A DNA stretch of 64,000 nt from an uncultured Methanomicrobiales archaeon (GCA_963697895.1 OY969100.1:1984001-2048000); one strand, 5' to 3'. Shown: positions 31,506 through 47,904, counted from the stretch's first letter. The notes: generated by a model not told the origin, from the letters alone. Program-made: numbers and translations.

Positions 31506-32336
31506 TCAGATTGCCACAATCGCAATTGCGACCAGTCCGACCAGAGCAGATGCAGTTGCAGATGCAATGACTGCCCGTGGCCAGCGCTTGAACTTGGGGT
31601 CGTGCGGTCCTTCGATCGTGCCGGTTATGTTATAAGCTGCAAGGACTGCGTTCACGAGGAAGAGTCCGATGGCGAATATACCGGCGAGTGTCACTGCAAT
31701 GGGCATGACCTGGGTGGCCGTTGCATTCAATACTCCCGGCAAGGATCCTGAGTACACGTCGAGCAGCATGATGTAGATGAGCGTCCCACCGGCACCGCCG
31801 AAGAGACCCCCGGTCACACCGCCGACATAGGATACGAACGGTAATCCATGTCCTTCAGTCCCCTGGGACTTATATTCCGGCTGGGAGTCCCCGGTTATCG
31901 GGTCCTTCTTTACCTTTCCGGATGCAGCAGGAATGCCCATCCCATACACATAGATGAAATTGACAAACAGGCAGGTGATCGCCATCATCAGTCCGCCGCC
32001 AACCGCTCCGGTGACAAAGGCAATAAGAAGCCCCTGCGGGGCAGCGAGCGCCCCTCCAAAGAGCCCTGCGAGCCCAGCACCGGCAGCGAGCATCGCGACA
32101 CCGGTTGCGATACCGGGTGCCTGGCCCATTGCAGCAGGTGCTCCTCCTACTGGGACGAACATCACACCGAATCCGATGAGAATTCCACCGATGGTAATCC
32201 CAATCAATGCGATAAAAGAGAGCGGGATCATCACATACATGATTCCGAGGAGAATTACAAGGATCACGAGTGCAATGACGGATGCAACGGGATCCATGCC
32301 TGCCCCGCCTGATGGTTTCGCTCCGACAGCGCTCAT
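31506..32336 (-). CDS. mtrD: Mtr subunit D
   Basis: FVPVGGAPAAM, DPITGD, GTEGHGLP, GTIEGPHDPKFK. Confidence 0.96.
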   Translation of the reverse strand: MSAVGAKPSGGAGMDPVASVIALVILVILLGIMYVMIPLSFIALIGITIGGILIGFGVMFVPVGGAPAAMGQAPGIATGVAMLAAGAGLAGLFGGALAAPQGLLIAFVTGAVGGGLMMAITCLFVNFIYVYGMGIPAASGKVKKDPITGDSQPEYKSQGTEGHGLPFVSYVGGVTGGLFGGAGGTLIYIMLLDVYSGSLPGVLNATATQVMPIAVTLAGIFAIGLFLVNAVLAAYNITGTIEGPHDPKFKRWPRAVIASATASALVGLVAIAIVAI

Positions 32337-33235
32337 GAAGACGCCTCCTCCGGCTTGGTGTACGGGCCGAAGTTCTTCCGAGCCCAGACCTCAATGTACC
32401 GGTCGATGATCATGAATATCAGAATGAGAATAATTCCAACAATGATTGCTCCCCATCCGGCACCGGTACTTTCGAAGATGACCGATCGCCAGAGTTCCAG
32501 GAAGACGATGAGACCGAAGCAGACTCCGGATGCAGGTCCACCCAGCTTAGCGCTGAACCAACCGTTGTCAAGTGAATTTCTCTCGCCAGCTTCTGCATAT
32601 CGTACGATGTTTCCTGATGCGGAGATTGGTACGCCTGCTCCGAAATTCTGCGTCTGGTACTGACGCTCCTTCCCATAGAAGGGGTTTCCGACCGCAGAAC
32701 CAGCTGCACCGAGTGCAATACCCCATACAAGACCAAGCAGGGGCAGCGGGAACGGATGTCCCAATGCAGCGTTCATCAGGTAACAGAGTGTTACCGTTGT
32801 AAATATCGCCACGAATGCATGTGCCATCGTGACGGTCGTCATGGACTTGAGAATATCGACGAACACTGGTTGTCCGAACTTGGCGAGACTCGCTGTCCTC
32901 CCGAGATATGCGGTTGTCGCGTAGACACCTTGTACAAAGGTGGCAAGCGCACATCCGAGGGCGATAGCAAGGATCGCGTTAATCTGCATTGCCATGAATG
33001 CCCAAGCAATTCCCGCCCCGAGTGCGATCCAGAGACCCCACGCCGGCGGTTCACCTGCAATTGCCTTATTGAAAATGCGGTGAACATAGCCCATCTGCGG
33101 AGCGAGCTGAACCTGCGAATTCGGGTCTCCCTGAGATCCGATATCTGATTCAACATCTTCCGCAGCACCGGCTACCGTGGCAAGAGCACCTGCCAATGCA
33201 GTAATTCCAATGCCAAATACAATGTTTTCCACCAT
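32333..33235 (-). CDS. mtrE: Mtr subunit E
   Basis: EDVESDIGSQGDPNSQVQLAPQMG..HRIFNKAIAGEP. Confidence 0.97.
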   Translation of the reverse strand: MVENIVFGIGITALAGALATVAGAAEDVESDIGSQGDPNSQVQLAPQMGYVHRIFNKAIAGEPPAWGLWIALGAGIAWAFMAMQINAILAIALGCALATFVQGVYATTAYLGRTASLAKFGQPVFVDILKSMTTVTMAHAFVAIFTTVTLCYLMNAALGHPFPLPLLGLVWGIALGAAGSAVGNPFYGKERQYQTQNFGAGVPISASGNIVRYAEAGERNSLDNGWFSAKLGGPASGVCFGLIVFLELWRSVIFESTGAGWGAIIVGIILILIFMIIDRYIEVWARKNFGPYTKPEEASS

Positions 33236-33523
33236 TTAGCCTCCTCCCTGCGTGCTGAATTGTGCACGAGAGTGTTCATATTGCAGTGCCACTCACATCG
33301 AGTACAAACCCTTTGTGGTCTTGTAACAGTTGATTATAAACGAGTTAAAGGTTTCGAAAAGATTTGTTTATAACGCTTTTTAATATGCGCAAATCATAAA
33401 AACGACGTTTTTACGCCGTTTTTCTTGACAGATAACATTTCGTTAAAGCAAAAAAAATTGTCCTCTTGGATTCTCCAGTTTTACTTTTCTTTGACGAAAA
33501 AAAAACTATCAGATTGAGGGATG

Positions 33524-34411
33524 TCACGCAGTGACACCCAGAAACATCCGGATACTAACACCGATAAGGAAGGATACTGCCGCAATACCGAGACTTAATC
33601 CTGCCATCTCCGTGAACCGCTTCCGGAAATTGAGATCCTGTGCCACAGACATGTACCAGGTGAAAAGAACGATAATGATCACCGCTCCGACAAGAGTGAC
33701 GGGCAGTGCCACAAAAGGACTTTGAAAGATGAGAAACGGTGCGATAAGCGCAATGACAGTCACGAAATATGCAATTCCCGTATAAAGTGATGCGGTAAAA
33801 GGATTGTTTCTTGTCCCTTCAGATTTTCGGGACAGATATTCAGCTGCTGCCATGGAGAGTGATGCGGCAACGCCCATAATCAGTCCAACTACTGCGATGA
33901 GGCGCGAATCCTGCAGTGCAAAGGTTAAACCTGCGAGGGTGCCGGTGAATTCGACTAGAGCATCGTTGAACCCGAGGACTACCGATCCGATATAACGGAG
34001 TTTTTGTTCATCAATCAAAGCAATAATCTGCTCTTCGTGATGCTGTTCCCGGGCACGGATCTGTTCTGCTTCCGGAAGGGTGGCTGCCAGAACCCCGTAC
34101 ATCTTCGTTGCCTCCCCCCCGGCCCGCTCCATCAGTTTAATGCCAAAGGTAAGGCCTAAGATCCGCGTGAGGAGATAATAAAACCAGAATTTAAAAGTGT
34201 CTGGCGGAATGGTCTCTCCTGTATAGTGTTGCCAGATATCGGCATGTTCCCGTTCTTCCTGTGCCAGCTGAATGAGAATATTGTGATTATACGGATCTTT
34301 TACCACAGACGAAAGTGCAAGATAGATATTATACTCTGTTATCTCTTCCCGTTGAAGATTTCTGACCAATATTAGCAGATCACTGTTCAGGGGAGCATCT
34401 GGCATGGGCAT
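33524..34411 (-). CDS. Rubrerythrin/ferritin-like domain fused to VIT1/CCC1 transporter (MbfA-like)
   Basis: E..EY..Y, EEREH, EQHHE ferritin-like ligands; VLGFNDALVE, SLSMAAAEYLS VIT1 motifs. Confidence 0.88.
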   Translation of the reverse strand: MPMPDAPLNSDLLILVRNLQREEITEYNIYLALSSVVKDPYNHNILIQLAQEEREHADIWQHYTGETIPPDTFKFWFYYLLTRILGLTFGIKLMERAGGEATKMYGVLAATLPEAEQIRAREQHHEEQIIALIDEQKLRYIGSVVLGFNDALVEFTGTLAGLTFALQDSRLIAVVGLIMGVAASLSMAAAEYLSRKSEGTRNNPFTASLYTGIAYFVTVIALIAPFLIFQSPFVALPVTLVGAVIIIVLFTWYMSVAQDLNFRKRFTEMAGLSLGIAAVSFLIGVSIRMFLGVTA

Positions 34412-34538
34412 TCGGATTCTCTGTCGGTTATACGGATCCTTAATGATTATTATATGTTACGTGGGATAATGCAGATGTACACCAAAAAAATGGGGCGATT
34501 TAAGACCTTAATAATGATCATTGACGATAAATTTTGTA

Positions 34539-35391
34539 GGGTATAGTACCATTTTAGCCACCACCTCGTAACTACTACGAGGTAACAATGGTCAGGATCC
34601 AATGCCCACGATGCCAATGCGAAAAGCTGTATAAATTGGGTAGTGGTAAGAGAAGATGTTCTCAATGCCGGTACGACTTTAAACCTCATAGATTGCCGCT
34701 ATACCTCACTCGCGAACAATGGAAAGAGATCATCACCTGGTTCCTCCTCGAACAGAGCAGCCAGAGCATAGCTGATAGAACTGGGATTGAACGTAAAAGG
34801 GTTCTCAGGGCTCTAAGCGTGATACGAAGCGCTCTGATGAAGGATGTCCCGGAAATCTTTTCTGGAACGGTTGAAGTTGATGAAACATACCTGGGAGGGC
34901 AGTGGAAAAATAAACGTAAATTCATCCGAGATCACGGGAGCAAGCGAGGAAGAGGAACAACGAAACAACCTATCTTCGGAATTCTTTGTAGAAATGGATT
35001 GGTTTGGGCAGAGATTGTCAATAATGTCGAAGCTGAGACCCTCCTGCCGCTAATTTCCAGCAAGGTGAAGAAGGGATCGATTGTTTGTTCAGATACGTGG
35101 AGAGCATATACAGGAATCGCATCGCGAGGATTTGTTCATCGGCTTGTAAATCATGGAGAACGGCAATATAGTGATGGAAGGGGTAGTCACATCAATGGGT
35201 TAGAGGGATTCTGGGGTTATCTTAAACGTAAGTTGGCGGCCAAAGGAGGAATCAGGAGGGAAAAATTATACCTATATTTAGGTGAATATGTCTGGAGATA
35301 TAATCATAGAAAATATACCGATAAAATGAAATTGAAGCGCATACTTGAACTATTAGAGGAAGAGGTTAGTGGCTAGTTTGTCACTATACCC
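34539..35391 (+). mobile_element. IS1595-family insertion sequence, 853 bp, intact
   Basis: Imperfect TIRs GGGTATAGTaccatttTAGCCAC / GGGTATAGTgacaaacTAGCCAC; identical 8-bp TSD ATTTTGTA at 34531-34538 and 35392-35399. Confidence 0.93.
34588..35376 (+). CDS. IS1595 (ISXO2-like) DDE transposase
   Basis: CPRC..CSQC zinc finger, HTH, VEVDETYLGG, SDTWRAY, HINGLEGFWGYLKR, YLGEYVWRYN. Confidence 0.93.
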   Translation: MVRIQCPRCQCEKLYKLGSGKRRCSQCRYDFKPHRLPLYLTREQWKEIITWFLLEQSSQSIADRTGIERKRVLRALSVIRSALMKDVPEIFSGTVEVDETYLGGQWKNKRKFIRDHGSKRGRGTTKQPIFGILCRNGLVWAEIVNNVEAETLLPLISSKVKKGSIVCSDTWRAYTGIASRGFVHRLVNHGERQYSDGRGSHINGLEGFWGYLKRKLAAKGGIRREKLYLYLGEYVWRYNHRKYTDKMKLKRILELLEEEVSG

Positions 35392-35459
35392 ATTTTGTAT
35401 TTCATCTAATTTCCAACTACCCAGGGAATGGAAGTCCGTTTATCGCCGTACGCCGGGTA

Positions 35460-36677
35460 TTAACCAAAGTCACGATGTACAGGGGGAAGAAGTTGCTGAA
35501 CATATTCCGAGACCCAGCGGAGAGGCAGGTGGAGTTCGGTTGCGATGCGCTTGAGATCATCGTATTCAGGTTTTACACTGATGATCTTTCCTTCCAGCGT
35601 GGAAGTCTTTACCCGAATATTATACCTGCGGCCACCCACCTGAACCGTTACGGTTGTCTTAGAACGGTCCGCGACCACCCGGGGAATATCCATCACCCGG
35701 ACACCAAGAGTTCCGGTCTCTTCCATGAGGATTGTCAGGAGTACGGGGTATTTTATCCGGTCTGTAATGATATGGAGTATCTGAACGGGACGATTCTTTT
35801 TCCCGTTTGCCTGGGTGACATAGGCATCGACTGCCCCCGCTTCACGGAGTAGCTCAAGAGTATAACCAATCGTCTCTCCATTGATATCATCAAGATTCGT
35901 CTCCAGCATGATGATATGATCCGGGATTACATGCATATTGGTACCTTCCACAACCCGGAGAACCGCCGGTCTCCCCTGAACCTGTCCTGAACCAGCACCA
36001 TAGCCGACCCGGGCCGGAGTCAACGGCGGATAGACATCAACCCACCTGTCTGCAATATTGGCAAGGACAGCGATACCGGTTGGAGTAGTCAGTTCATCGT
36101 CAGAAGGAAGGGTCGCGAATGGGACGTGATGCCGGGAAAGGAGTTCCAGAGTTACTGGTGCCGGGCCGGGAATTTCACCGGTCATGATCCGTGTTAGTCC
36201 GGACCCCAGTGCGGGAGGAGTGGCGAAGATCTCTCCCTGAAGTAGGCCCGCCTTATCGAGGAGAAGGAGGGAACCAATGATATGGAAGAGGATATCCACC
36301 GATCCGGTTTCGTGATTATATCCGTCGGGATGGACTTTTCCAGCGGCACCTATCAGGTCATCGAGCACTTCCCCCGCAAACTTGCCTGCCTGGGGAGAAA
36401 GTCCGAGGTCACAGTTCAGATCAGCAGCCGTACTTTTGAGATCCCCCGAAATTCGATTATTCTGTTTCTCGCCGGAGACGGCAATTTTTTTGGCCATTAT
36501 TCCCCCTGCGTCGACCTCTCGAAGTTCGAACGAGAATTTGCCGGAGCGAACTGAACCATCGAGTAGATCCGCCAGCTGCTGCAAGAGGTCCGTGGAACCG
36601 GTAAGGTCCGCGAGGGCTGCCAGGAACATATCACCGGTTATCCCGGCGATTTTCGGGTCAATTACCAGGATGTTCAT
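35460..36677 (-). CDS. larC: LarC-family nickel insertion protein (divergent)
   Basis: AGITGDMFLAAL, PAPVT, ELTTPTG, GYGAG, LETNLDD, KKNRP, ETGTLGVR, KPEYDD. Confidence 0.88.
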   Translation of the reverse strand: MNILVIDPKIAGITGDMFLAALADLTGSTDLLQQLADLLDGSVRSGKFSFELREVDAGGIMAKKIAVSGEKQNNRISGDLKSTAADLNCDLGLSPQAGKFAGEVLDDLIGAAGKVHPDGYNHETGSVDILFHIIGSLLLLDKAGLLQGEIFATPPALGSGLTRIMTGEIPGPAPVTLELLSRHHVPFATLPSDDELTTPTGIAVLANIADRWVDVYPPLTPARVGYGAGSGQVQGRPAVLRVVEGTNMHVIPDHIIMLETNLDDINGETIGYTLELLREAGAVDAYVTQANGKKNRPVQILHIITDRIKYPVLLTILMEETGTLGVRVMDIPRVVADRSKTTVTVQVGGRRYNIRVKTSTLEGKIISVKPEYDDLKRIATELHLPLRWVSEYVQQLLPPVHRDFG

Positions 36678-36692
36678 AAAGGTAAGATGATT

Positions 36693-38535
36693 TTAAGCAC
36701 CGGACGATCTACTGAGGCGTGTGTAGATCTTCTGTGCAAGTCGAGCAACATCGAATGCACGTTCACGGCCCCCGGGAATTGCCTTAGTGAGGTATGCACC
36801 TGTCTCTGCGCCCTTTGCTGCAGCTTTCTCATCCATGCCAAGCAGGGTGGCGACCGCTGCAGGTACGGTGATATTGATGATAGTATGACCAATATATTGC
36901 AGTTCCTGCGTAAGTACCGCCCCGACAAAGAGTGCTGTGCCCATATCCGGGTTATCACGTCCTTTTCCTTCGATAACAAATTCTGGTACCGCTTTGGCAG
37001 AAAGATTATCAATATGATACGGTTTTCCGTCGATCGTGATATCATATGCGACGTATGAATCAAATGCCCAGTACTTTTTCGTAAAGGAATCGGTGCGTCG
37101 TCCCTGCGGCCTGATTTCAGTAAACTTAAGGGCAATTTTCCGTCCGGTAAATCCAGAAAGGACCACAGAGCCTCTGGTCTCGACAAAGGCTTTCCGTTCC
37201 TCATCAAGTGTCTTCGCCGTCTCTTCAACCGATTTTCCGGCCTTTATCATCTCATAAGCCGTTACTGCCCGGCGATAGATTGCCCGATCCCGTACATCTT
37301 CGCTTGCGAGAATGCAGGCCTGCGTAACCGAACCACGGGAAACCATCTCGGCCTTTCGTGCGATGGTATTGAGGGAACACAATGCCATCTCGGGATCAAT
37401 GAAAGAATTTCAGCTTATACTCGCGAATGGCATCAGCAACCGGGTAGAGATCGCCCCTGTTTTTTATAAGCAACCGTATCGCGGGCATGGTATCTCCGCA
37501 GACATGACCGAGTGGAGGGTTGACCGGCCCCCCAGAGAATCCTGCCCCGATGATCGCGGATTCTTCAAATCCCGCAAAGATTTCTTCGAGCGCCATGGAA
37601 GCAATGACTGAAGGACCGCCGATGTCCTTCAGGATGAGGCCGAAGTCACCGACGACCCGTGCGGTATCATACTCCTCGTGGGTACCCCTGACGTGAATTT
37701 TTACGGGAAGCCCTGCTGCCTCTATGGCACCTTTTCCAGCCAGATATGCAGTATCAACTTCTCCAAAAGCACCGAATTCCTCACCGAGCGCTGCATCCGG
37801 GTGAACCATCTCAAGGGATACCGCTGCACCGATAAGGGCAGGCCAGAGGGGGTATGCCGTGATTCCTGCACCATGCATACTCCTGATCATTGCATCGGTT
37901 CCCACTTTTGCGGCATTTCGGGCGAGCTCGGGGATATTATAGTCCTCTCCCAGTGCGCTGTGGCCATAAATTGCTCCACCGGCAATGAACGGCGGAAGCA
38001 CGGAACCATCGACCCGGGTCAGTTTTTTGTCCATTAACTCGGTATAGACCGCGAGATATGCCGGAAATGCCGGTATTTTATGAGTGAACTTCCCGGTTGT
38101 CAGGGCGATGGCACTCGTCCGGGGTGCACCGGCATGCATGCGGGCAATCGCTCCCAGCTTTCTATTCCCGAGCGGTACACCCGATCGGGCACAGCTTCCG
38201 GTAAAATACGCCAGAGAAGCCACGATCAGGGCTGCATTTTCCGGGGCCGCCCCTGCATTCATGCTCTGCCGGATCGCCTTTTCCATCACCATATCGAGCG
38301 GCAGGCTTGCGGCTGCAGCATCGACCAGGGTCATCCGAGATAAAAGTTCCATATCGGGCGACGCGAAGCCACAGAATACATCCTCAGCGAGCGAGTTTGC
38401 CGCACAATAGACAGGGATCACGAGGGAACCGTGTCCGCGTGTGGCGGCCTCCAGCTTATCATTCGTCATGTAGTCAGGTTTGAAGGTCGCTGCAGCATGG
38501 GTTGCAAGTATTATCTTTTCCCGTTCGTTTTCCAT
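36693..38535 (-). pseudogene. Unknown ~613-aa protein split by a single +1 frameshift (ORFs 38535-37396 and 37388-36693)
   Basis: Removing one base in the T run at 37408-37410 joins ...EYKL to NSFIDPEMALCSL...; 1842 nt = 613 aa plus stop; ends 15 bp before larC. Confidence 0.7.
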
Positions 38536-38829
38536 AATCCGTCACACCGGTTCTTTTATCCGTGGTTAGTTGGTTCTGTATCAGATAAAATATGGGGTCC
38601 GGAGAAATGTTCCAACAAAATGGTCAGGGAAACTGCATCAGAGCTGTATTCCCTGATTTAGATTTTCCTGGCGAAGCCGTCCCGATTGGGGCCTGAAGTA
38701 ATGAAAACCCATACTGGTCAGGTCATACTTCCGGAATTCGAAGACTCCTCAATGCTCACCAGACCCTCTGCTCGCATCGGAAGTCATTCATAGAAGAGGG
38801 TCGTAATATTCAGTTAAGGGGGAATTGCT

Positions 38830-39255
38830 GTGCAGGAAGAAGGAGACCATCTGGAAATAGTGCGGCCCCGGGGCAGGCCGCGTGTACGCCGGAAGATTGA
38901 ACCGGAAGGTCCGGTCCGCTGCTACGCCCCCCAGTGTAATGTTCGGGGAAAGGAGGAAGTGGTGGTGCTCCTTCCCGAAGAGCTCGAACTCCTGAAACTG
39001 GTCGATCTTCAGGGGCTCGAGCAGGAGGAAGCAGCAACATCCATCGGGGTTTCACGGCGTACTGTCTGGCGGGATCTGCACGAAGCCCGCCGAAAAGTGG
39101 CAGACGCCCTGGTCCATGGAAAAGAGATCGAAATCTCAGGGTGTACTCTGAGATCAGAGGGCCGGTGTCCCCGGTTGGCTGATGGCCTCTGCCCGAAAGA
39201 AGAGGGCGTTACCTGCCCTAAACGCTGGCAGCGAGGCAATCAATCCAGAGACTGA
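38830..39255 (+). CDS. DUF134 family HTH protein with Cys-containing tail
   Basis: RGRPR, EELELLKLVDLQGLEQEEAA..GVSRRTVWRDLHEARRKVADALVHGKEIEI. Confidence 0.9.
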   Translation: MQEEGDHLEIVRPRGRPRVRRKIEPEGPVRCYAPQCNVRGKEEVVVLLPEELELLKLVDLQGLEQEEAATSIGVSRRTVWRDLHEARRKVADALVHGKEIEISGCTLRSEGRCPRLADGLCPKEEGVTCPKRWQRGNQSRD

Positions 39256-39334
39256 TCAATCCCATCCGATAGCTCTTCCACCGCATTTCTTTTCCGTGAA
39301 TCGTTTGAAGCGCACGATCTGACTTTGCACTAAC

Positions 39335-39360
39335 TTTAAATATTTATCCTCATAAGTGTA
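39335..39360 (+). promoter_or_regulatory. TATA box (TTTAAATA) plus degenerate operator copy TTATCCTCATAAGTGTA
   Basis: 13/17 match to the box at 42492-42508, in the same position relative to TATA. Confidence 0.5.
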
Positions 39361-39389
39361 ATTATCCCTGAGTATATCGAGGACTTTTC

Positions 39390-39530
39390 ATGCCGAACTA
39401 TGACGGATTCGAAGCCCTGGTACAGGGGTGTGCGATCGGACAGGAATGGGGCTGCAGACAGTCATGCAGGGGATTTTGCCCGCCTGCACACCATGAAAAG
39501 GAAAACCAGCTCCGGAAAGGCAGTCTATAG
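39390..39530 (+). CDS. 46-aa Cys-rich DUF5320-like mini-ORF or remnant upstream of atwA
   Basis: MPNYDGFEALVQGCAIGQEWGCR aligns ungapped with MPGLNGTGPLGQGQITGRGFG (8/21 identical); GAGGA SD. Confidence 0.5.
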   Translation: MPNYDGFEALVQGCAIGQEWGCRQSCRGFCPPAHHEKENQLRKGSL

Positions 39531-39560
39531 GGTAATTACACCCACGGGAGCGATGAAGGA

Positions 39561-41189
39561 ATGACTTCACCACTGATAACTATTAAAAACCTTTGCATAG
39601 AGTTCGACGGAAAGAACGTCCTCAAAAACCTGTCCTTTGAGATCCTGGAAGGAGAGATCGTCGGGATCATCGGCAGGAGCGGTGCGGGTAAGAGCGTGCT
39701 CATGCATCTGCTGCGGGGTGTTGAGCAGCCCCCGAGTGCGGGTTCCATCGTCTATCATGTCGCCCTGTGCGACACCTGTTACTATACGGATGTGCAGAGC
39801 AGGACGGGGGGGAAATGTCCGCAATGTGAAGGCAAGCTCGTTGGAAAGGATGTGGACCTCTGGAACGAGAAGAGCGACCTCCTGAGATCAAGGGTTATGC
39901 ACCGGACCGCCATCATGTTCCAGCGGACATTCGCGCTCTATGGAAACGACCGGGTGATCGAAAACGTCCTGCACGCCCTTGATGATGTCGGATATCCTCC
40001 CGAGAACGCGATCAACCGGGCGGCAGACCTCCTCGAACAGGTTCGTCTGGGCCACCGGATGATGCATATCGCCCGGGACCTGTCTGGGGGTGAAAAACAG
40101 CGTGTGGTGCTGGCCCGCCAGCTGGCAAAAAACCCCGTCATCCTCTTCGCCGATGAACCGACGGGTACCCTGGATCCGAGAACCGCACGACTGGTTCATG
40201 AGATGCTGGTCGAGGCCTCACAAAACAATCAGATGGGCATGGTGATCACCTCCCACTTCTCCGGTGTGATCGAGGATGTCGCCCATCGTGCATTGCTCCT
40301 TGATAACGGGGAGATCTCGATGGAGGGGCCTCCCCAGGAGGTCATATCTTCTTTCCTGGCTCAGCTCCAGGATGGTGAAATTATTGACCGGTGTGCCCTG
40401 GGTGAACGGATCCTGTCGGCACGGGATGTGGCAAAGAAGTATATAACAGTGGATCGCGGGGTAGTCAAGGCGGTCAACGGTGTCAGCTTCGAGGTTGCTG
40501 AACACGAGATATTTGGTATTATCGGGACGAGCGGTGCCGGCAAAACCACGCTCTCCCGGATGATTGCAGGGATTATCGAACCGACAACCGGAGAGTTGAA
40601 TATGCGGATCGGGGAAGACTGGGTGGATATGACCACGCCGGGGATCAATTCCCGCGGGCGGGCGAAGGGATACATCGGCCTCCTCCACCAGGAATATGAC
40701 CTCTTTCCCCACCGTACGGTCCTCGATAACCTGACGGATGCTATCGGGCTCGAGTTTCCAAAGGAGCTCGCGATGCACAAGGCGAAGATCAGTCTGCGGA
40801 TGGCAGGGTTCCCGGATCTCTTCCTCGACGGGATTCTTCAGCGTTTCCCATCGGAACTCTCCGAAGGGGAACGGCACCGGGTGGCCCTCGCCCAGGTGCT
40901 GATCAGGGAACCACGGCTGGTAATCCTCGACGAACCGACTGGTACGATGGATCCGATCACCAAGGTCGATGTGAAACAGTCCATCCTTCATGCACGCCAT
41001 GAAATGGAGGAGACATTCATCGTGGTCTCCCACGACATCGACTTTGTCCGGGACATCTGCGACCGCGTTGCACTCATGCGGGGAGGAAAGATCATCCATA
41101 TCGGGCCGACCATGGAGGTACTCGACATTCTTACCCGTGAAGAGCGTGAAATGATGGCCGAACGTACGGCATCTGTCACGGAGACCTGA
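39561..41189 (+). CDS. atwA: Methyl-coenzyme M reductase system component A2 (dual ABC ATPase)
   Basis: GRSGAGKS, CxxC..CPQC insert, AIMFQRTFALY, HRMMHIARDLSGGEKQR, DRGVVKAV, LHQEYDL, EPTGTMDPITK. Confidence 0.93.
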   Translation: MTSPLITIKNLCIEFDGKNVLKNLSFEILEGEIVGIIGRSGAGKSVLMHLLRGVEQPPSAGSIVYHVALCDTCYYTDVQSRTGGKCPQCEGKLVGKDVDLWNEKSDLLRSRVMHRTAIMFQRTFALYGNDRVIENVLHALDDVGYPPENAINRAADLLEQVRLGHRMMHIARDLSGGEKQRVVLARQLAKNPVILFADEPTGTLDPRTARLVHEMLVEASQNNQMGMVITSHFSGVIEDVAHRALLLDNGEISMEGPPQEVISSFLAQLQDGEIIDRCALGERILSARDVAKKYITVDRGVVKAVNGVSFEVAEHEIFGIIGTSGAGKTTLSRMIAGIIEPTTGELNMRIGEDWVDMTTPGINSRGRAKGYIGLLHQEYDLFPHRTVLDNLTDAIGLEFPKELAMHKAKISLRMAGFPDLFLDGILQRFPSELSEGERHRVALAQVLIREPRLVILDEPTGTMDPITKVDVKQSILHARHEMEETFIVVSHDIDFVRDICDRVALMRGGKIIHIGPTMEVLDILTREEREMMAERTASVTET

Positions 41190-41837
41190 TCGCCATGCGG
41201 GATGCACGCACCCTCACGATTCACGACCCCGGATCTGCACTCAATGGACTCTATCCCCGGTAACATTGTAAGTCCCTGAACTCCTTGCCCGGTTTAGGGA
41301 AGAGCGGGAGGAAAAACGCAATGTGTTACGGTGAAGGATATCAGAACCGGTTTCATACCGGGCGGAAAGATCCTTCCCTGAATCCGGATCCCTCCCGACT
41401 CGCAATCGGACCGTTCCTGATTTATCCATATTTGGGTCAGGAGGAGCGGATGAAGGATTGTGCCATCCGACAGGTGTCGGTTTGCGTTACCCTTTCCGGA
41501 GAAGAGAATATAAGGGGTGAACGACCAGGGGACACGGCGTCCGGTGTGGTGAATGTCACCACAAGGGCACCAGCGTGTCAGAAACTGTTCATTTCCCTGA
41601 GTTTACCGGGCCAAGAGGGAGATATCTTTGATTGAAATATTGCCCCTGCTCAAAAGCTTTTTATTATGAAATTTTGCGGATCCCCCAACGAACTGCTGGA
41701 TCTGACATACATCGGGGGTATACATCCGAGCCTGTCCCTCAGTAGGACGTAATAGGGATAAGGTTTATGAGGGGCATACGACCCTGCACCGGGCTCGATG
41801 CCGGATTTTCAAATGCGCTGCAGGGGGTAATTCCACA

Positions 41838-42185
41838 TCAGCTGCCGCACTCATGCGTGTGGTGGCAGCTGCTCTCTCCCGGGGTGATCCGTCCGGCAAT
41901 GAACTCATTGATGACGGTATCGATCGGTCCCCTGATACCGAGATACACCTCGATATTGTTCGCACAGAAGAGGTCCACCGCTTTGGGACCCATCCCGCCG
42001 ACAACCACGTGAGTGACCTGGTGCTCGGCGAGCAGGGCTGGCAATCGGCCCGGCTCATGGCCGGGGTTTGGTAGATCCACACGCTGAGTAATCTTCCCAT
42101 CCTCCACTGTGAAGAGGATATACCCTTGACAATGTCCAAAATGTCCGGAGACCTCGTCCCCGTCCTGTGCTATGGCAACTTTCAT
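41838..42185 (-). CDS. NifB/NifX (COG1433) cluster-binding family protein
   Basis: MKVAIA..VSGHFGHC, PGHEPG, GGMGPKA, C-terminal CHHTHEC. Confidence 0.9.
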   Translation of the reverse strand: MKVAIAQDGDEVSGHFGHCQGYILFTVEDGKITQRVDLPNPGHEPGRLPALLAEHQVTHVVVGGMGPKAVDLFCANNIEVYLGIRGPIDTVINEFIAGRITPGESSCHHTHECGS

Positions 42186-42195
42186 GTGAAAAAAC

Positions 42196-42459
42196 CTACC
42201 TGTTCTGACCGAAAGGGCCCCGGCCCCCGCCGAAACCCCGTCCTCGACCGCAACCGCAGGGGATGCCGCCGCGTCCCAAACCATACACCGGTGCCTGTGG
42301 CACAGTTTCCTGCCCGTTCTCTGCAATCTGCGGGGATGTACCCTGCTGCATGAGAGGTGTCATACGTTCAGCGCTGAAAGAGGCGTTCCGGCATCGTCCG
42401 AAACCCCTCCCTGTTATCTGACCCTGCCCCAAGGGTCCCGTTCCATTTAATCCCGGCAT
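42196..42459 (-). CDS. DUF5320 family Gly/Arg-rich protein
   Basis: MPGLNGTGPLGQGQITGRGFGRC, YGLGRGGIPCGCGRGRGFGG. Confidence 0.85.
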   Translation of the reverse strand: MPGLNGTGPLGQGQITGRGFGRCRNASFSAERMTPLMQQGTSPQIAENGQETVPQAPVYGLGRGGIPCGCGRGRGFGGGRGPFGQNR

Positions 42460-42491
42460 AAGTATCACTGGTAACTCCTTAGAACCATATC

Positions 42492-42508
42492 TACTCATAT
42501 GTGCATAA
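42492..42508 (-). promoter_or_regulatory. Palindromic operator TTATGCACATATGAGTA just downstream of a TATA-like CTTAATTA
   Basis: 16/17 identical to 45119-45135; CATATG core. Confidence 0.65.
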
Positions 42509-42619
42509 ATAATTAAGCCTATCTGATAGGGCAAGTTTTATTCGATTGGTGAACCACGGGGTTTTATCTTTGAATATTGAAGGGACAATTAATTTCAGAC
42601 CAGATATCGTCATTTATTT

Positions 42620-42965
42620 CCGGACAGAAGCCCCTATTTCTTTTCAGGCATATCCCCCTTGGTACGCCGTTTACGCCCTTCAATCTCGATGGTCTTACCA
42701 TTCACCACCGCATCAGCGATTTTTCGTCGGGCTTTATGGAGGTCTCCCTCAGAATTGGTTCTTTTGATAAGCCGTGTTTTCCCGGGTCGCTGGTTTTTGG
42801 TCGAGCCCCCGGAGATCGACCAGATTTAGCGGTGCCAGCTGGGAAAGCGTTACGAACGCAGTCTGCTCGTGGGTTGCATTGATGAGGTTAGAAGCGGGGA
42901 GCAGCGCTTCCTTGGCAGTCCGGTTCACGCGAGGTCACACTCGACGTTTGCAGAAACCGCCTCTT
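42620..42965 (-). pseudogene. Decayed second DUF134 gene
   Basis: 42744-42676 reads DLHKARRKIADAVVNGKTIEIEG (17/23 identical to the intact DUF134); upstream LNLVDLRGLDQ and RRV*PRVNR with stop and frameshifts; boundaries approximate. Confidence 0.8.
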
Positions 42966-42973
42966 TTTCGCCC

Positions 42974-43858
42974 TTATACCGCCTTACTCACCTCAAGTGA
43001 CGGGAGCAGGTTGGCCGCCAGTCTCTGTATGGCCCGTGCCGCCAAAAAAGTGTCATTGCCGGTGATGGCTCTCCGGGCCCTGACCGTTTCGATAACCGCG
43101 GGATCGAACGGGATCTTTCCGATGACCGGGATCCCCTCCTCCCGGCACCACCGTTCGATCATCTCCGTGATGGACATGTCCAGATCAAAGCGGTTGATCG
43201 CAAGAACGATCTTCCCTGTAAACTGCCGGGTGACTGCTGCCACCCGTTTGAGATCATGTAATCCCGAAACGCTGGGTTCTGTCACGATAAGGATGACATT
43301 CATCCCCGTGATGGTGGAGATGAGGGGGCAACCAGTACCGGGAGGTCCGTCGATCAGCAGGAGATCGCACCCCTTGTCCGCCTGAAGGGCGGTCTTTTTC
43401 ACCTCATGCACAAGCAAGCCCGAGTTTCCTGCTCCTGGACGGAGGCGTGCATGGGCGAGGTCTCCCACTGAAGTCGAGGATAGGCAGATCTCTCCGCATA
43501 GGCGGGGTTCCATGCGGATCGCGGCCGTGGGACAGACATGGGCACAGACAGCGCACCCTTCGCAGCGGGCAGGGGTGATCCGGTATCCCTGCTCATCATC
43601 AGCGACAACGGCGTGGAAACGGCAGAAGGCACCGCATGCGCCGCAACTTGAGCAGAGTGCGGGATCGATGACTGCGGCATTCATCCCATAGAACGGTTTC
43701 ATCCAGATACGCTTCGGTGCAAGGAGAATGCCAAGGTTAGCCGCATCCACATCGCAATCCGCGAGCACAAGGCTCCTTGGAAGCAGGTTGGCGAGCGCTG
43801 CGGTGATCATCGTTTTTCCTGTACCCCCTTTACCGCTGATCACCGCGAGCCGGATCAT
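42974..43858 (-). CDS. MinD-superfamily P-loop ATPase with inserted 4Fe-4S ferredoxin domain (COG1149)
   Basis: SGKGGTGKT, DCDVDAAN, CSSCGAC / CEGCAVC..CP, NSGLLV, DGPPGTGCP. Confidence 0.92.
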   Translation of the reverse strand: MIRLAVISGKGGTGKTMITAALANLLPRSLVLADCDVDAANLGILLAPKRIWMKPFYGMNAAVIDPALCSSCGACGAFCRFHAVVADDEQGYRITPARCEGCAVCAHVCPTAAIRMEPRLCGEICLSSTSVGDLAHARLRPGAGNSGLLVHEVKKTALQADKGCDLLLIDGPPGTGCPLISTITGMNVILIVTEPSVSGLHDLKRVAAVTRQFTGKIVLAINRFDLDMSITEMIERWCREEGIPVIGKIPFDPAVIETVRARRAITGNDTFLAARAIQRLAANLLPSLEVSKAV

Positions 43859-44706
43859 CAGTGCACCCCCGTGAGAGCACAGCATCGGATGAAGAGAGCG
43901 AAAAAGCGCTCCTGCCATGCCGGCTCGGCCCGGCAGATCAGGTCTCCATGGTTCTGGACCGCGGCGATCCCCCGATCGAACGGAATTGTCATAAGTACTT
44001 GCAATTCATGCTGTGCGCAGAACTCGAGGGTTTTTTCGTCTCTGCCGTCACTCCTGTTGATCACCACCCCGGAAGGTATACCCATCCCGTCTGCCACCTC
44101 TGCGGCGAGACGGAGGTCGTGCAGGCCGAAAGGGGTGGATTCTGTGACGAGGATGCAGGCATCACATCCGTCCATTGTCTCGATCACGGCGCAGGCAGTG
44201 CCGGGTGCCGCATCATAGATGACCAGATCATCATCTTTTGCCCTCTCCTTTGCCGCCCGGATTACGGGGGTTGCCTGGGGCTTCCCCTCGTCAAGGATCC
44301 CCGTGATGAGTTTCAGCCGGGGTGCGGGGGTGGCGACCGTGATCTGACCGATCCGTGCCGGGTCCTCCCGGATGGCGCCCTTCGGGCAGGCCAGCGTACA
44401 CCCTCCGCACGAGTGACACAGGTCGGGGAAGAAGAGAATCCGGTCTCGGAGCACGGTGATCGCCCCGAACTGGCAAGACTCGGCACACGTACCGCAATGG
44501 TCGCAGACACTCTCTTCAAAGGACGGGATCGGCACAGTCACATTAGTAACCGTGGCAGGTGCAGGAAAGAAGAGATGGAGATTGGGCTCTTCTACATCAC
44601 AGTCCACGAGAGTCACCTCACGGGTCAGGGATACCGAATAGGCGAGGTTTGCTGCCACAAGGGTCTTACCGGTACCCCCCTTCCCGCTTGCTATCGCTAC
44701 CTTCAT
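43858..44706 (-). CDS. Second MinD-superfamily ATPase with 4Fe-4S ferredoxin domain (COG1149)
   Basis: SGKGGTGKT, DCDVEEPN, CDHCGTC / CHSCGGC..CP, TESTPFGLHDL. Confidence 0.92.
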   Translation of the reverse strand: MKVAIASGKGGTGKTLVAANLAYSVSLTREVTLVDCDVEEPNLHLFFPAPATVTNVTVPIPSFEESVCDHCGTCAESCQFGAITVLRDRILFFPDLCHSCGGCTLACPKGAIREDPARIGQITVATPAPRLKLITGILDEGKPQATPVIRAAKERAKDDDLVIYDAAPGTACAVIETMDGCDACILVTESTPFGLHDLRLAAEVADGMGIPSGVVINRSDGRDEKTLEFCAQHELQVLMTIPFDRGIAAVQNHGDLICRAEPAWQERFFALFIRCCALTGVH

Positions 44707-44763
44707 GCGCTGTCCATCTCCGGGACATTGGGCCATTGGACTGCTTGAATGCTATTCTTACCC

Positions 44764-45099
44764 CTACCCCGTACGCTTTAGGGTATTTTCCTTAAACTGC
44801 CCGTATGCGTCCCGGACGGTCCCATTGCCGCGGTATGCGTACATTGCAATGCCCGCCGCGACGAGAACCTCGTGGGCGTTTCCGCCTACCTGACCGCTGA
44901 CAAGCGCTTTTACCCCGCGATCGATGAGTAGCTGGGCGGCTTTCGGACCCACGCCTCCGGCACCGGCTGCGAACTGGTTCTCATGCGCCTCGATAGTATT
45001 GCTATCGGTATCGATAAGAATAAAGTACGGAGCGCGTCCGAATCGCTCTTCTGCCGGGGCATCCAGTGTCGGTCCCTGAGCAGTAATACAAATTTTCAT
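44764..45099 (-). CDS. NifB/NifX (MTH1175-like) family protein
   Basis: MKICITAQG, RFGRAPYF, GGVGPKAAQ, GQVGGNA. Confidence 0.9.
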   Translation of the reverse strand: MKICITAQGPTLDAPAEERFGRAPYFILIDTDSNTIEAHENQFAAGAGGVGPKAAQLLIDRGVKALVSGQVGGNAHEVLVAAGIAMYAYRGNGTVRDAYGQFKENTLKRTG

Positions 45100-45118
45100 T
45101 TGATAGTTCTCCCAATAT

Positions 45119-45135
45119 TACTCATATGTGCAAAA
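45119..45135 (-). promoter_or_regulatory. Palindromic operator TTTTGCACATATGAGTA just downstream of a TATA-like TTTATCTA
   Basis: 16/17 identical to 42492-42508. Confidence 0.65.
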
Positions 45136-45300
45136 TAGATAAACATGCTGATGATATTAACCGTACTGAAGTCCTATCATCATATGAACGAAAAAGAGCA
45201 GAATGAAAGATAAAACCTCCAGGAAACACACCCCCGGGTAGTTTATCGGATATGACGATCGGAGAATCCATCAGGTCACGGTAAGAAACAACAGGTGCGT

Positions 45301-46158
45301 ATGACATCGGAGCTTACGATTACAATACTGGTCGACAATAATACCCTCATCGACCGGTATTTTTTCGGGGAACCCGGCCTCTCGCTGCTTGTCGAAGTGG
45401 ACGGGAATCGAATCCTCTTTGATACCGGTTATTCGGATATATTCATCAGCAATGCCGGAAGGATGGGAATCGACCTCCTGACCCTCGATTATGTGGTCTT
45501 TTCCCACGGTCATCTGGACCATACCGGAGGGTTCCCGCACCTTCTCCGTCACCTTACGGAAGCGTCGATCGAGGGGGTATCGCATCCGCTGCCTGAACTC
45601 ATCACCCATCCCTATGCTTTGTACCCCCGGCCGAAACCTCCGCTCCCGAATATTGGCTCCCTCGTAAGCAAAGAGGAAGTGGCACGCCACCTCCCCGTCA
45701 GGACAAGCCGGAAACCGGTTTGGCTCACCGAGAATCTGGTCTTCCTCGGGGAGATCCCCCGGAGATTCCCGTTCGAGGAGCAGGACCCTGGGACGCGAAA
45801 GATCGTGATGCCGAACGGCAATATGGAGCCGGATCTACTCATTGACGACTCTGCACTTGCATATCGCTCGGAAAAGGGTCTGGTTATTATTACGGGTTGT
45901 TCCCATGCCGGGATAGTAAACATCGTCACCCATGCACGTCAGGTCTGCGATGAAAAACGGGTGGTGGATATCATCGGCGGTCTGCATCTGCAGAATGCGC
46001 CGCAGGAAAAGATCGAGGGAACCTGTGCCGGTCTGTCCGGCTTGGGTCTCCATGCCCTCCACTGCTGTCACTGCACCTCACTTCCTGCAACGATCGCTCT
46101 TGCCGGGTGTTGCCCGGTCCGGGAAACGGGTGTGGGGCTTTCAATCACCTACCTATAA
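45301..46158 (+). CDS. MBL-fold metallo-hydrolase (COG1237 type)
   Basis: LFDTG, SHGHLDHTGG, GCSHAG, GGLHL, CHCT. Confidence 0.9.
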   Translation: MTSELTITILVDNNTLIDRYFFGEPGLSLLVEVDGNRILFDTGYSDIFISNAGRMGIDLLTLDYVVFSHGHLDHTGGFPHLLRHLTEASIEGVSHPLPELITHPYALYPRPKPPLPNIGSLVSKEEVARHLPVRTSRKPVWLTENLVFLGEIPRRFPFEEQDPGTRKIVMPNGNMEPDLLIDDSALAYRSEKGLVIITGCSHAGIVNIVTHARQVCDEKRVVDIIGGLHLQNAPQEKIEGTCAGLSGLGLHALHCCHCTSLPATIALAGCCPVRETGVGLSITYL

Positions 46159-46198
46159 GTATCGAGGCCGGGGATTTTCAAAAAAAAAGGTATTGATC

Positions 46199-47899
46199 TT
46201 ACCGGGCCGGTATGATCAGGGAACGCTCTCCGGCGGGCATGAACTCGCGGATGGCACCCTTTGCGAACTCGCGGCGTGGCTCGGAGAAGTCGAACTTCAG
46301 GGACGGGTCTGCGAAGCAGATCTTGATCAGGGGGGACAGTGCCCATGCGTCGCCGCGGCCGATATGGGCTGCGCCGGCGATTGCGGCATATTCTCCCTGG
46401 TGACCCACGTTCATCGCGTAGTTCGGGTAGTTCGGTCCACGGAGCTCGCCGACCGCACCCTCGTCGGGTCGGACAGAGAGCGAGTTCGTCGAACCGCACT
46501 GGTCCTGCAGGTCGTAGCCGAAGAAGCCGAGACGTGACCATCCTTCCTTGTGCAGGAGCATGGACATGTACCAGCCGTTCAGGCCGGCATTCGAGTTGCC
46601 GGTTGCGATTGAAACCGACAGACCTGATGCTGCGGCCAGGACAGATGCACGCTGGGAACCGCCGAAGTGGTCCTCGAGGGCGGTCGGGAAGCCTTCATAT
46701 TGCTCCATACCGTACATCGTTACCTCACTGGCAATATCGTTGACATTCTCCTGGGTCGGCTTGAGCCGGTCTTTCTCAGACGGCATCGCAGCATTGACCT
46801 TGTACTTGTCCTTGATGTAGTCCATACCGTAGTAGGTGTAGTCGTCAAGGATGTTGTCCGTGTATGCTGCGGTTGCATACTGGGTGAATCCGACACCACC
46901 GGACATGTAGGACCCGAGCCAGATCTGGTCGAAGAGCATGGTTCCTGCTGCGACGATCTCGAGGGACGCACGTGCCGGGTCGTTCGGGTACTTCCGGTCG
47001 GTCTGGATCATGTCGGCGAAGTTGCCGAACTTGATGCCACCGGGTTCGTTCGGTCCACGGGCACGGCGGGCGGGCAGGATGTCTGCCATCTGGATAACAC
47101 CGGCGTGCTTTGCGGCGAATGCGAGGTCCGCGACTGCGGCCTCACCGGCACACATCCGGTACGCACCGATGAAGGACATACCGAGCTGCATGGCGGACCA
47201 CCTGCTGGTCGTACCGCCATCACAGGTACGGGAGACGATCGTCGGGATGTGGATCGCCTGCCACAGGGACTTGCCGATCGCTGCCTTTAACTGGGCAGCC
47301 TGTTTCGCCGGGAAGAGCTTGTCGAGCTTGATGACGAACTGGGGCTCGAGTGAGTCGGCCATCTCGTCATCGCCGGTGAATACCTTACAGTAACAGTCCT
47401 CGACGAGGGAGGGGTGGGTCTCGACCATGTGTTCCTGGACGACGGCCGCACCGGGCATCGCGTGGTTCAGCACGTGGAGGTATTCGTTGATCGTCTCCGG
47501 GGTGACTTCCTTGGAGAGACGCTTCTGCAGGGTCTGGTGAGCGAGGTCCATGTTGACGATGATCGTCCGCCGGATATCGTCCCACATCTGCTGCATTGCG
47601 GCGTTGTTGACGAAGTGGAGGTCGTCACCCTCGACGAATACGCCGGTGGTGCTGACCTCATAGGGTGTCAGCTTGCGCTGCCCGAGCGGGATACCACCAA
47701 GGTGGCAGCGCACGGGGTCGTACATGCTGATGCCGCGGGCCATCGCCTCTTTCTGCCCTTCTGCGACGAACTCCATCTTGCGGGCGGACTGCTTGAGCCC
47801 CTCTCGCGCATAGAACGTGGAGGTGGACGCCGGGTCTTCGGCGAATTTCTCTTTCAGCGCCTTCAGGAAGAGCTTCTGGGATCTCTCAATTTTTGCCAT
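46199..47899 (-). CDS. mcrA: Methyl-coenzyme M reductase alpha subunit
   Basis: [54 protein letters not shown]. Confidence 0.99.
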
Positions 47900-47904
47900 C
47901 GTAA

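Follow-up and report, generated by a model that had tools for sequence, protein, structure and literature searches.

The interval between mtrE and mcrA of an uncultured Methanomicrobiales archaeon contains a complete second gene for component A2 of the methyl-coenzyme M reductase (MCR) activation system, placed behind a gene of the DUF134 family and next to a set of genes resembling the orange-protein (ORP) cluster of anaerobes. The interval studied covers about 12.6 kb, at positions 33524-46158 of the 64,000-nt stretch of DNA that was analysed (the window, G000:C1:1984001-2048000), and comes from a source genome of 2.09 Mb in a single contig with a rated completeness of 93.85%. Annotation by listing of open reading frames (ORFs) and by Pfam and NCBIfam profile scans gives, from mtrE to mcrA, the gene order VIT1, IS1595, LarC, U613, DUF134, AtwA2, NifX_b, DUF5320, MinD_b, MinD_a, NifX_a and MBL. 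The features central to this study, with their scores and model cut-offs, are the following:

32333-33235, minus strand: mtrE (flank)
38830-39255, plus strand: DUF134/UPF0251 protein (PF02001 76.4 bits against 27; Sigma70_r4_2 30.1 against 25.7)
39390-39530, plus strand: small 46-aa ORF (MPNYDG...) directly upstream of AtwA2, tentative (no Pfam match)
39561-41189, plus strand: AtwA2, complete second MCR component A2 (TIGR03269 841.8 bits against 517.1)
41838-42185, minus strand: NifX-like protein b, last gene of the cluster (PF02579 72.4 bits against 26.3, a match seen only from the internal start MKVAIAQ)
42196-42534, minus strand: DUF5320 protein (PF17253 34.5 bits against 27, match from residue 26)
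42622-42768, minus strand: decayed DUF134 remnant (tblastn E 9e-9, 54% identity over 41 residues)
42974-43918, minus strand: MinD/CbiA P-loop ATPase with inserted 2x[4Fe-4S] ferredoxin, copy b, Orp3/Orp4-like (PF01656 55.8 bits, PF10609 49.4, Fer4)
43858-44736, minus strand: MinD/CbiA P-loop ATPase with inserted 2x[4Fe-4S] ferredoxin, copy a (PF01656 55.3 bits; PF00037 42.4, two stretches)
44764-45099, minus strand: NifX-like protein a, first gene of the cluster, divergent from MBL (PF02579 73.9 bits against 26.3)
45295-46158, plus strand: MBL-fold metallo-hydrolase (PF00753 50.7 bits; 2p4z E 6.5e-30)
46199-47908, minus strand: mcrA (flank)

All the gene families that a first-pass annotation had listed for the interval were recovered by the scans. 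Its list was incomplete, lacking an IS1595 element and the decayed DUF134 remnant.

A genome-wide profile search gave two TIGR03269 matches over the cut-off (863.3 and 841.6 bits) in a genome that has one mcrA. The first-pass name AtwA is correct as to A2 identity; the A2 of the canonical activation operon is the other copy, 284 kb away, which heads the series atwA-mmp3-mmp6-mmp5-mmp15-mmp17-mmp7, each gene over its NCBIfam cut-off. Identity between the two A2 proteins is 72% (381 of 532). AtwA2 contains two ABC nucleotide-binding domains (PF00005, two stretches, 183.9 bits) and the zinc-binding motif CXXCX12CXXC, in the form CDTC-YYTDVQSRTGGK-CPQC at residues 70-89. A regular expression for this N-terminal motif matched 59 of the 61 A2 sequences examined, and the accessible part of a preprint on A2 (10.64898/2026.03.18.712670) states that it sets A2 apart from related ABC ATPases. 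Residues 5-532 align to the A2 of the solved activation complex (8s7v_K, E 6e-178), whose P396 and F399, named as McrA-latch contacts in the accessible sections of the Nature 2025 activation-complex paper, correspond to P400 and L403 of AtwA2; the 'PKEL' stretch is shared with the mmp-linked copy. AtwA2 may have an MCR-stimulated ATPase activity and a part in reductive activation, the conserved latch-contact stretch being the sequence feature that bears on it. Compared with the known activation system (cryo-EM complex 8s7v/9h1l: A2, McrC, Mmp7, Mmp17, Mmp3), AtwA2 is a full A2 by score, domains and motif, but it is an additional copy that lies apart from the mmp operon, beside DUF134 and ORP-like genes; it is dispensable in some relatives and evolves faster, with an end branch of 0.35 against 0.14 for the mmp-linked copy of the same genome.

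The DUF134 protein consists of a sigma-70-region-4-like helix-turn-helix (HTH) followed by a Cys-rich tail, C-x9-C-x7-C-x8-C. As the one PF02001 match in the genome it is the only intact DUF134, and several DUF134 members exceed the cut-off of Sigma70_r4_2 as well. The A2-linked forms have 5-9 Cys in Methanomicrobiales and 10-13, with zinc-ribbon-like CxxC pairs, in Methanobacteriales and in the family designated f14. Against solved structures the protein gave weak HTH or designed-protein matches and no related structure, and a literature search on DUF134, UPF0251 and COG1342 returned nothing on methanogenesis. The HTH and the Cys-rich tail suggest that DUF134 may be a sensor-regulator. A predicted AtwA2-DUF134 complex had an ipSAE of 0.00 in two runs, made without controls, a result that speaks neither for nor against binding.

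The 46-aa ORF between the two genes is preceded, about 50 nt upstream (near 39337), by a TATA-like TTTAAATATTTAT. Methanoregulaceae relatives (L010, L011, L101, L102, L106, L108) show at the same position an ORF of about 47 aa with the pattern MP[DN]FDG.GPLKRGR.IGRG.GPC. Three of the ORFs of this length match PF17253 at E 6e-6 to 9e-4, L118 alone being above the 27-bit gathering cut-off. The ORF of the window diverged after its first six residues and is possibly a diverged copy of this DUF5320-like mini-ORF.

Recurrence and history of the DUF134-A2 pair

The linkage was followed in an order sample of 61 genomes including G000, a phylum sample of 201 genomes and 80 named loci. A2 is present in all 61 genomes of the order, with two or more matches in 17, distributed as 8/11 in the own family (f1), 4/10 in f2, 5/10 in f6 and 0/30 in f3-f5; DUF134 was found in 53 of the 61. 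Second-copy loci were fetched from 15 of the 16 other multi-A2 genomes, the fragmented G019 being left out, and in all 15 the A2 copy outside the mmp operon has DUF134 beside it, within 1.3 kb in 14 and at 4.1 kb in G041. In the Methanoregula loci L090 and L104 and in G059 the A2 gene stands on the same strand behind a whole NifX-MinD-MinD-DUF134-DUF5320-NifX cluster, the gap being 22 bp in G059, and A2 and cluster are also co-directional in G035.

The phylum sample extends this pattern. Family f14, which groups with the named Methanocellaceae loci in the tree, has two A2 matches in 11 of 15 genomes, and its second-copy loci have the order DUF134, NifX-like, A2 in 7/7. In L050 and L051 this trio comes directly after mcrBDCGA and is followed by NifX, DUF5320, MinD, MinD, NifX, DUF134 and MBL, in L053 and L054 U613 and a LarC2-like gene are added beside it, and VIT1 and MBL are added in L055; VIT1 also lies beside A2 in L017. 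Among the 80 named loci DUF134 is directly upstream of A2 on the same strand in Methanocaldococcus (L128, gap 42 bp, PF02001 152.6 bits), Methanothermococcus, Methanobrevibacter and Methanobacterium; it is divergent from A2 in Methanocorpusculum-like loci. The order NifX-DUF134-A2 occurs in L140, L152 and L161, and a convergent MBL gene in L160 and L161 (Pfam-confirmed in L161). The lineages with DUF134-A2 are Methanoregulaceae, f2 (Methanomicrobiales), Methanocorpusculum-like, Methanocellaceae-like, Methanobacteriales and Methanococcales, DUF134 being Pfam-confirmed in six lineages other than our own.

For a contrast between the two settings we pooled 141 A2 loci and detected neighbours by local profile HMMs within 6 kb. 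In 43 loci DUF134 lies at most 1.5 kb upstream of A2, and 37 of these have both genes on the same strand; mmp genes follow A2 in 63; the 35 loci with neither include 12 with less than 1.5 kb of upstream sequence, and most of the rest are from Methanobacteriales. The neighbours found were:

DUF134-linked A2 (43 loci): NifX 15, DUF5320 13, MBL 9, MinD-Fer4 5
mmp-linked A2 (63 loci): NifX 0, DUF5320 0, MBL 0, MinD-Fer4 0

Mcr genes are near in 8 of the 43 DUF134-linked loci, mtrE in 5, and LarC, U613 and VIT1 in 3 each; these counts show a pattern rather than a probability, the pooled loci being kin and partly picked as second copies. The linkage is not unique to this genome, uniqueness being one of the outcomes that the first-pass annotation had named as a refutation, but recurs across orders.

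Several lineages of methanogens have retained two full A2 genes, each in its own kind of genomic setting. In the section of the A2 preprint available to us two A2 are described only where MCR and ACR coexist. For the tree given there, sequences were grouped at 70% similarity, a level at which paralogues that are 72% identical, such as these, may have been merged. A literature search on component A2 with Methanocella, Methanoregula or Methanolinea gave no mention among the matches listed.

The history of the pair was examined in two A2 trees, of 61 and of 81 sequences, made with a quick search in IQ-TREE under LG+G4. The DUF134-linked copies fall into separate clades, each of them adjoining or nested within the mmp-linked copies from the same lineage: one of 13 copies for Methanoregulaceae and f2 (support 95), one for f14 and one nested in a Methanocorpusculum-like genus, with a similar split of A2 copies in Methanobacterium. 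A single ancient DUF134-linked A2 subfamily is disfavoured by the tree and by the approximately unbiased (AU) test. Since the latter rejects one clade of DUF134-linked copies, either the pair arose anew through several duplications or the two A2 copies were homogenised within lineages.

Two further observations concern A2 copies of relatives. Methanobacterium sp. UBA44 (L134 and L152, on two contigs) has two A2-like genes in sister clades, one with NifX-DUF134 upstream and one without; Methanobacteriota encode one A2 according to the accessible part of the A2 preprint. In L019 (G013:C29) a broken DUF134-linked A2 is found at 9550-11125, in two tblastn pieces, with an Mrp-like fragment ORF adjoining.

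The ORP-like cluster and the supply of complex iron-sulfur clusters

The cluster next to AtwA2 runs from NifX_a to NifX_b. The nearest solved sequences to MinD_a cover MinD and polyferredoxin parts only. The DUF134 remnant, which has an internal stop and has lost its Cys residues and HTH, lies between MinD_b and DUF5320, in the position of the intact DUF134 of relatives' clusters, and the true start of the DUF5320 protein is probably the methionine of MPGLNGTGP near 42459. The MBL protein is of the same family as PDB 2p4z and TM1679; among solved structures only uncharacterised structural-genomics entries match it. In a survey of 20 DUF134 loci of about 20 kb each, from 19 single-A2 genomes, 13 show a co-directional cluster [NifX]-NifX-MinD-MinD-DUF134-[DUF5320]-[NifX] adjacent to DUF134, and in two others it lies no more than 7 kb away. 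Only L048 of these loci is placed between mtrE and mcrA.

The likeness of the NifX/COG1149/DUF134 set to orange-protein clusters, drawn by the first-pass annotation, holds for the MinD-Fer4 and PF02579 proteins and fails for MrpORP and the sigma-54 regulator. With respect to the system of Desulfovibrio vulgaris (Orp3, Orp4, Orp5, Orp8, Orp9), as given in the accessible part of PMC6345978, the two MinD-type 2x[4Fe-4S] ATPases resemble Orp3/Orp4 and the small PF02579 proteins, in two copies, resemble Orp8. The interval contains no MrpORP, however (Orp9, a Mrp/NBP35 and PF02579-like fusion; NF041136 gave partial matches of 21.7-90.4 against 450), no sigma-54 regulator and no enhancer-binding protein gene; relatives have one co-directional operon instead of two divergent ones; and an A2 ATPase and a MBL hydrolase are attached, in a methanogen without nitrogenase. 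Literature searches returned nothing linking NifX to A2, or ORP genes (orange protein, COG1149, DVU2107) to A2, subscription journals and bioRxiv supplements being outside their reach. DVU2107 is presumably a DUF134 protein.

NifB is essential in methanogens without nitrogenase. The present genome has a NifB homologue over the cut-off (354.8 bits against 343.65) at G000:C1:2067746-2068561, about 33 kb beyond the mcr operon and outside the window, which lacks a NifX domain because the match covers only profile positions 3-281 of 441. NifD was not found in the genome (best 58 bits against 653.55) and exceeds its cut-off in only 8 of the 61 genomes of the order. PF02579 occurs in exactly two genes of the genome, both in the interval.

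According to the accessible part of PMC12176620, three L-cluster-like [8Fe-9S-C] clusters sit on McrC/Mmp7 in the activation complex and NifB is 'probably involved'; NifX has 0 occurrences in that article. According to the portion available of another preprint (10.1101/2023.10.20.563283), the NifB proteins of methanogens all lack a NifX domain and the NifX orthogroups do not track nitrogenase, and a 2026 review (PMC13474568), in its accessible part, states that the shuttling of such clusters to archaeal targets is unresolved. The stand-alone NifX-like proteins are reasonable candidates for carriers, because they adjoin A2 in a genome without another known user of such clusters. They share the PF02579 domain with the NifX/NafY carriers of FeMo-co and NifB-co, and the NifB of the genome has no NifX domain of its own; unlike those carriers they have no nitrogenase or NifEN to serve, and they lie beside A2 and mcr rather than nif. 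Any cluster binding by them is putative.

Other features of the interval and its variability

Towards mtrE the interval holds a further group of features:

33524-34411, minus strand: VIT1/CCC1-family metal transporter gene (PF01988 47.1 bits against 28.1)
34531-35399, plus strand: IS1595-family insertion sequence including the 8-bp target duplication (transposase, terminal inverted repeats, empty site in relatives)
34588-35376, plus strand: IS1595 transposase ORF, DDE (PF12762 111 bits; NF033547 146.5 against 75)
35460-36677, minus strand: LarC-type nickel-insertion protein (PF01969 293.5 bits), downstream of U613 in a shared unit
36693-38535, minus strand: U613, conserved 613-aa protein, split into 379 aa (37396-38535) and 231 aa (36693-37388)

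The first-pass annotation had named the transporter ferritin-VIT1. The VIT1 part is confirmed; the possible ferritin-like N-domain is a sub-threshold Rubrerythrin match (18.4 against 22.8), and the MbfA equivalog model stays below its cut-off (30 against 450). The insertion sequence has terminal inverted repeats of 23 nt (34539-34561/35369-35391), inside an 8-bp direct repeat, ATTTTGTA, at 34531-34538/35392-35399. We compared the window with contigs of four metagenome runs that contain near relatives at least 90% alike, and in all four the site is empty, 34530 being joined to 35392 (861 bp skipped). With DDE transposase, inverted repeats, target duplication and empty site, the element shows every hallmark of its family; it is a recent insertion, outside any conserved unit.

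The LarC protein passes both the LarC1 and the LarC2 models (TIGR00299 103 against 90; NF052512 117.4 against 50). A paralogue, 32% identical, is encoded at G000:C1 ~1746-1747 kb, and LarB (244.5 bits) and two LarE (293.8 and 269.9), all over the cut-off, elsewhere in the genome; these genes belong to the context of the nickel-pincer (NPN) pathway. The present LarC departs from that pathway in that the genome, rated 93.85% complete, gave 0 matches to PF09861, the LarA-type user, and in that U613, which belongs to no known family, always precedes it. The other LarC lies about 6 kb upstream of the canonical atwA-mmp operon (G000:C1 ~1733000-1747400, locus L009), and 10 of the 63 mmp-linked A2 loci have a LarC of this type at most 6 kb away.

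The first-pass annotation had seen a protein of about 613 aa at the position of U613. The family is real and the gene is not intact in this assembly: one extra base near 37411 splits it, the junction reading EYKL|KFFH* and then NSFIDPEMALCSL in the next frame, where the relative P0002 (613 aa, 97% identical) reads EYKLNSFIDPEMALCSL. The base is missing from contigs of metagenome runs X1 and X4; it is either a real mutation or an assembly error. Relatives of U613 have 603-620 aa and are 53-97% identical. The protein gave no Pfam domain, no PDB sequence match at E<=1 and no usable protein-atlas match. Its AlphaFold2 (AF2) model (pLDDT 83.6, pTM 0.86), searched as a whole protein rather than as single domains, gave nothing in Foldseek against the PDB at E<=0.001 (best TM 0.13), and VIA-align over 48,161 chains gave no fold match (best Z 6.6 over 65 residues). 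An hhalign alignment of U613 with LarC had a probability of 0.3%.

U613 is patchy, occurring in 15 of the 201 genomes of the phylum sample and in no other genome among 7 sampled from its own family. A LarC or LarC2-like gene follows it in 15/15 loci (including L177-L190), and in f14 and f7 this gene encodes the LarC2-like domain only. Because of this constant order, and of a genome without LarA-type protein, U613 may act in a nickel-pincer-type pathway, as a partner or user that has escaped recognition. LarC and U613 form a separate unit, only occasionally linked to A2.

The interval is a patchwork rather than one module. It is not an operon, since its genes form six or more transcription units distributed over both strands, as judged from the gene layout. 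The G+C content falls to 0.45-0.47 at 33-36 kb, where VIT1, the insertion sequence and the 3' part of LarC lie, and is 0.53-0.60 elsewhere in the interval; the drop suggests a different origin for that end. An Rfam scan of 33000-46500 gave no family at gathering score, and a promoter and terminator scan (17 against 10.9 expected and 9 against 13.3) used a bacterial consensus, uninformative for an archaeon.

That mcr and mtr usually adjoin, much as the first-pass annotation stated, holds for the order: of the 51 genomes with mcrA and mtrE on one contig, 39 have a gap of 194-674 bp. The gap is widened to 1.7-19.4 kb in 12 (9 of the own family, 3 of f2), six of these gaps containing A2, broken in one, and the remaining ones the NifX/MinD cluster alone, radical-SAM genes, MBL or unrelated ORFs. 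The supposed island is a variable insertion site in one part of the order, a lineage-specific and still-changing expansion of a normally ~200-bp spacer in which several separate units have accumulated. ORFs of two kinds starting with radical-SAM-like Cys motifs recur in the expanded gaps of relatives (L011 7538-8692, L171 12734-13897, L019 16687-17856; L172 1247-2209, L171 15243-16310), and an ORF of about 237 aa recurs beside AtwA2 or in the mcr-mtr gap (L011 11207-11923, L170 7359-8069). The mcrA matches of family f4 (G003, G009, G015, G021, G033, G039, G051, G057) each contain a single TAA or TAG 'inside'; their alignments probably run one residue past the protein and so take in its terminal stop.

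Interpretation and alternatives

The explanation that fits the locus best as a whole, in which we place about half of our confidence, is an old ORP-like iron-sulfur set with an A2 copy behind DUF134, serving MCR activation. The old conserved unit would comprise a NifX-like protein, two MinD-ferredoxin ATPases, DUF134, DUF5320, a second NifX-like protein, MBL, and A2 behind DUF134. Starting from the gene identities, the paralogy, the synteny across orders and the absence of nitrogenase, all of them observed, we infer the regulation, the cluster type and the target as follows. DUF134 would sense redox state or clusters and regulate both the ORP-like genes and the A2 gene that follows it, and AtwA2 would be a working A2 giving inducible extra capacity for the ATP-driven remodelling of MCR at activation or reactivation. 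The NifX-like carriers and MinD-ferredoxin ATPases would receive complex iron-sulfur clusters, most attractively those of the NifB-made [8Fe-9S-C] type, and pass them on to, or insert them into, McrC/Mmp7, the electron-transfer module of the activation complex. LarC with U613, VIT1 and the insertion sequence would be separate, mobile additions. In its most specific form, namely that the NifX-like and MinD-ferredoxin proteins of ORP clusters make up the machinery, so far missing, that carries NifB-made clusters and inserts them in methanogens, with McrC/Mmp7 as client and DUF134 as the regulator coupling them to the A2 gene, the proposal is speculative and on balance doubtful.

Several results weigh against an ORP-like set that serves MCR activation. 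Contigs of three of the four metagenome runs join 41185 to 45258, skipping the whole 4,072-bp cluster, so that AtwA2 adjoins the MBL side directly, and none of the 20 DUF134 loci from single-A2 relatives contains an A2 gene. AtwA2 itself is dispensable in places: 3 of the family's 11 genomes lack it, and in G013 two TAA codons interrupt it. Holding the 26 class II DUF134-linked copies together, a group defined after the first tree was seen, was rejected (log-likelihood difference 434, p-AU 7e-61). No common dyad or k-mer, as a shared operator, was found upstream of 15 DUF134 and 6 NifX_a genes by a crude method applied to unaligned and differently bounded upstream regions. In the accessible part of PMC12176620 the McrC pull-down from M. 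maripaludis gave Mmp7, Mmp17, Mmp3, A2 and DUF2098, with no DUF134, NifX or MinD. The pooled counts overstate independence because of the kinship and partial selection of the loci. Finally, ORP clusters are found in bacteria without MCR (PMC6345978, accessible part), and a general role of ORP cannot for that reason be MCR-specific.

The alternative that survives best, though we still think it unlikely, is that these genes are neighbours without a shared job: the ORP-like genes would be a general iron-sulfur system of anaerobes, with a proposed role in cell division in Desulfovibrio, and A2 would have settled at a convenient promoter or spacer. The cluster is indeed widespread without A2, also in bacteria according to the part of PMC6345978 available, near relatives lack it at this site, and the contents of the 12 expanded mcrA-mtrE gaps vary, only 6 of them holding A2. 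Against such chance settling, DUF134-A2 recurs far from mcr and mtr, in Methanocorpusculum-like genomes, Methanobacteriales and Methanococcales, and the pairing was re-created or retained in no fewer than three class II lineages. Also against it, NifX, MBL and DUF5320 accompany the DUF134-linked A2 and never the mmp-linked one, and the genome has NifX-like proteins without a nitrogenase to use them.

The proposal of the first-pass annotation, that the whole 12.6 kb is one co-regulated module supplying nickel or iron-sulfur cofactors for MCR activation, is now improbable. Most of the products do handle metals, and some loci favour it in part, with U613 and a LarC2-like gene by DUF134-NifX-A2 in L053 and L054, VIT1 and MBL in L055, VIT1 in L017, and U613 within about 10 kb of the second A2 in all 4 genomes of the Methanocellaceae-like family that bear it. 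The interval is nevertheless not one co-regulated module, because of its mixed strands, the insertion sequence, the frameshift and the pseudogene remnant. The insertion sequence is absent from relatives, the ORP-like cluster varies as an indel between near relatives and stands apart from A2 in 20/20 single-A2 loci, the low G+C sets VIT1, the insertion sequence and the LarC end apart, and the rarity of LarC, U613 and VIT1 at DUF134-linked loci, with the patchy distribution of U613, argues in the same direction. The first-pass interpretation is retained for the core of DUF134, A2, NifX-like proteins, MinD-ferredoxin, DUF5320 and MBL and given up for the interval as a whole including LarC, U613 and VIT1.

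It is equally hard to credit that AtwA2 is an A2-type remodelling ATPase that has acquired a new client, such as the ORP-like complex or some other metalloprotein while it is loaded with a cluster. Its faster evolution, the long branches in its clade, its loss or breakage in some relatives and its constant place among ORP-like genes, never mmp genes, would agree with a changed client. A score far above the A2 equivalog cut-off and the retention of the 'PKEL' latch-contact stretch and of the zinc-binding motif (10.64898/2026.03.18.712670, accessible part) speak for a true A2, and in loci of the Methanococcales type the DUF134-linked gene is the A2 found. The least probable reading makes DUF134 a physical partner or adaptor of A2 or the ORP-like proteins instead of a regulator: the two genes have stayed together over very long evolutionary distances, in many cases with little space between them as in L128, and the A2-linked forms have large Cys-rich, zinc-ribbon-like tails, but the HTH signal is clear, with Sigma70_r4_2 over the cut-off in several members, DUF134 is divergent from A2 in Methanocorpusculum-like loci, and it was not pulled down with McrC in the accessible part of PMC12176620.

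If an ORP-like set with an A2 copy behind DUF134 does serve MCR activation, the neighbourhood names concrete candidates for how [8Fe-9S-C] clusters reach the MCR activation complex, and it would give a first physiological handle on DUF134 and on the 'orange-protein' clusters. Should the more specific form of the proposal hold, those clusters would function in anaerobes as chaperones for complex iron-sulfur clusters. Even if this explanation is wrong, the presence of two full A2 genes in two settings is a useful result, not described in the A2 literature accessible to us.

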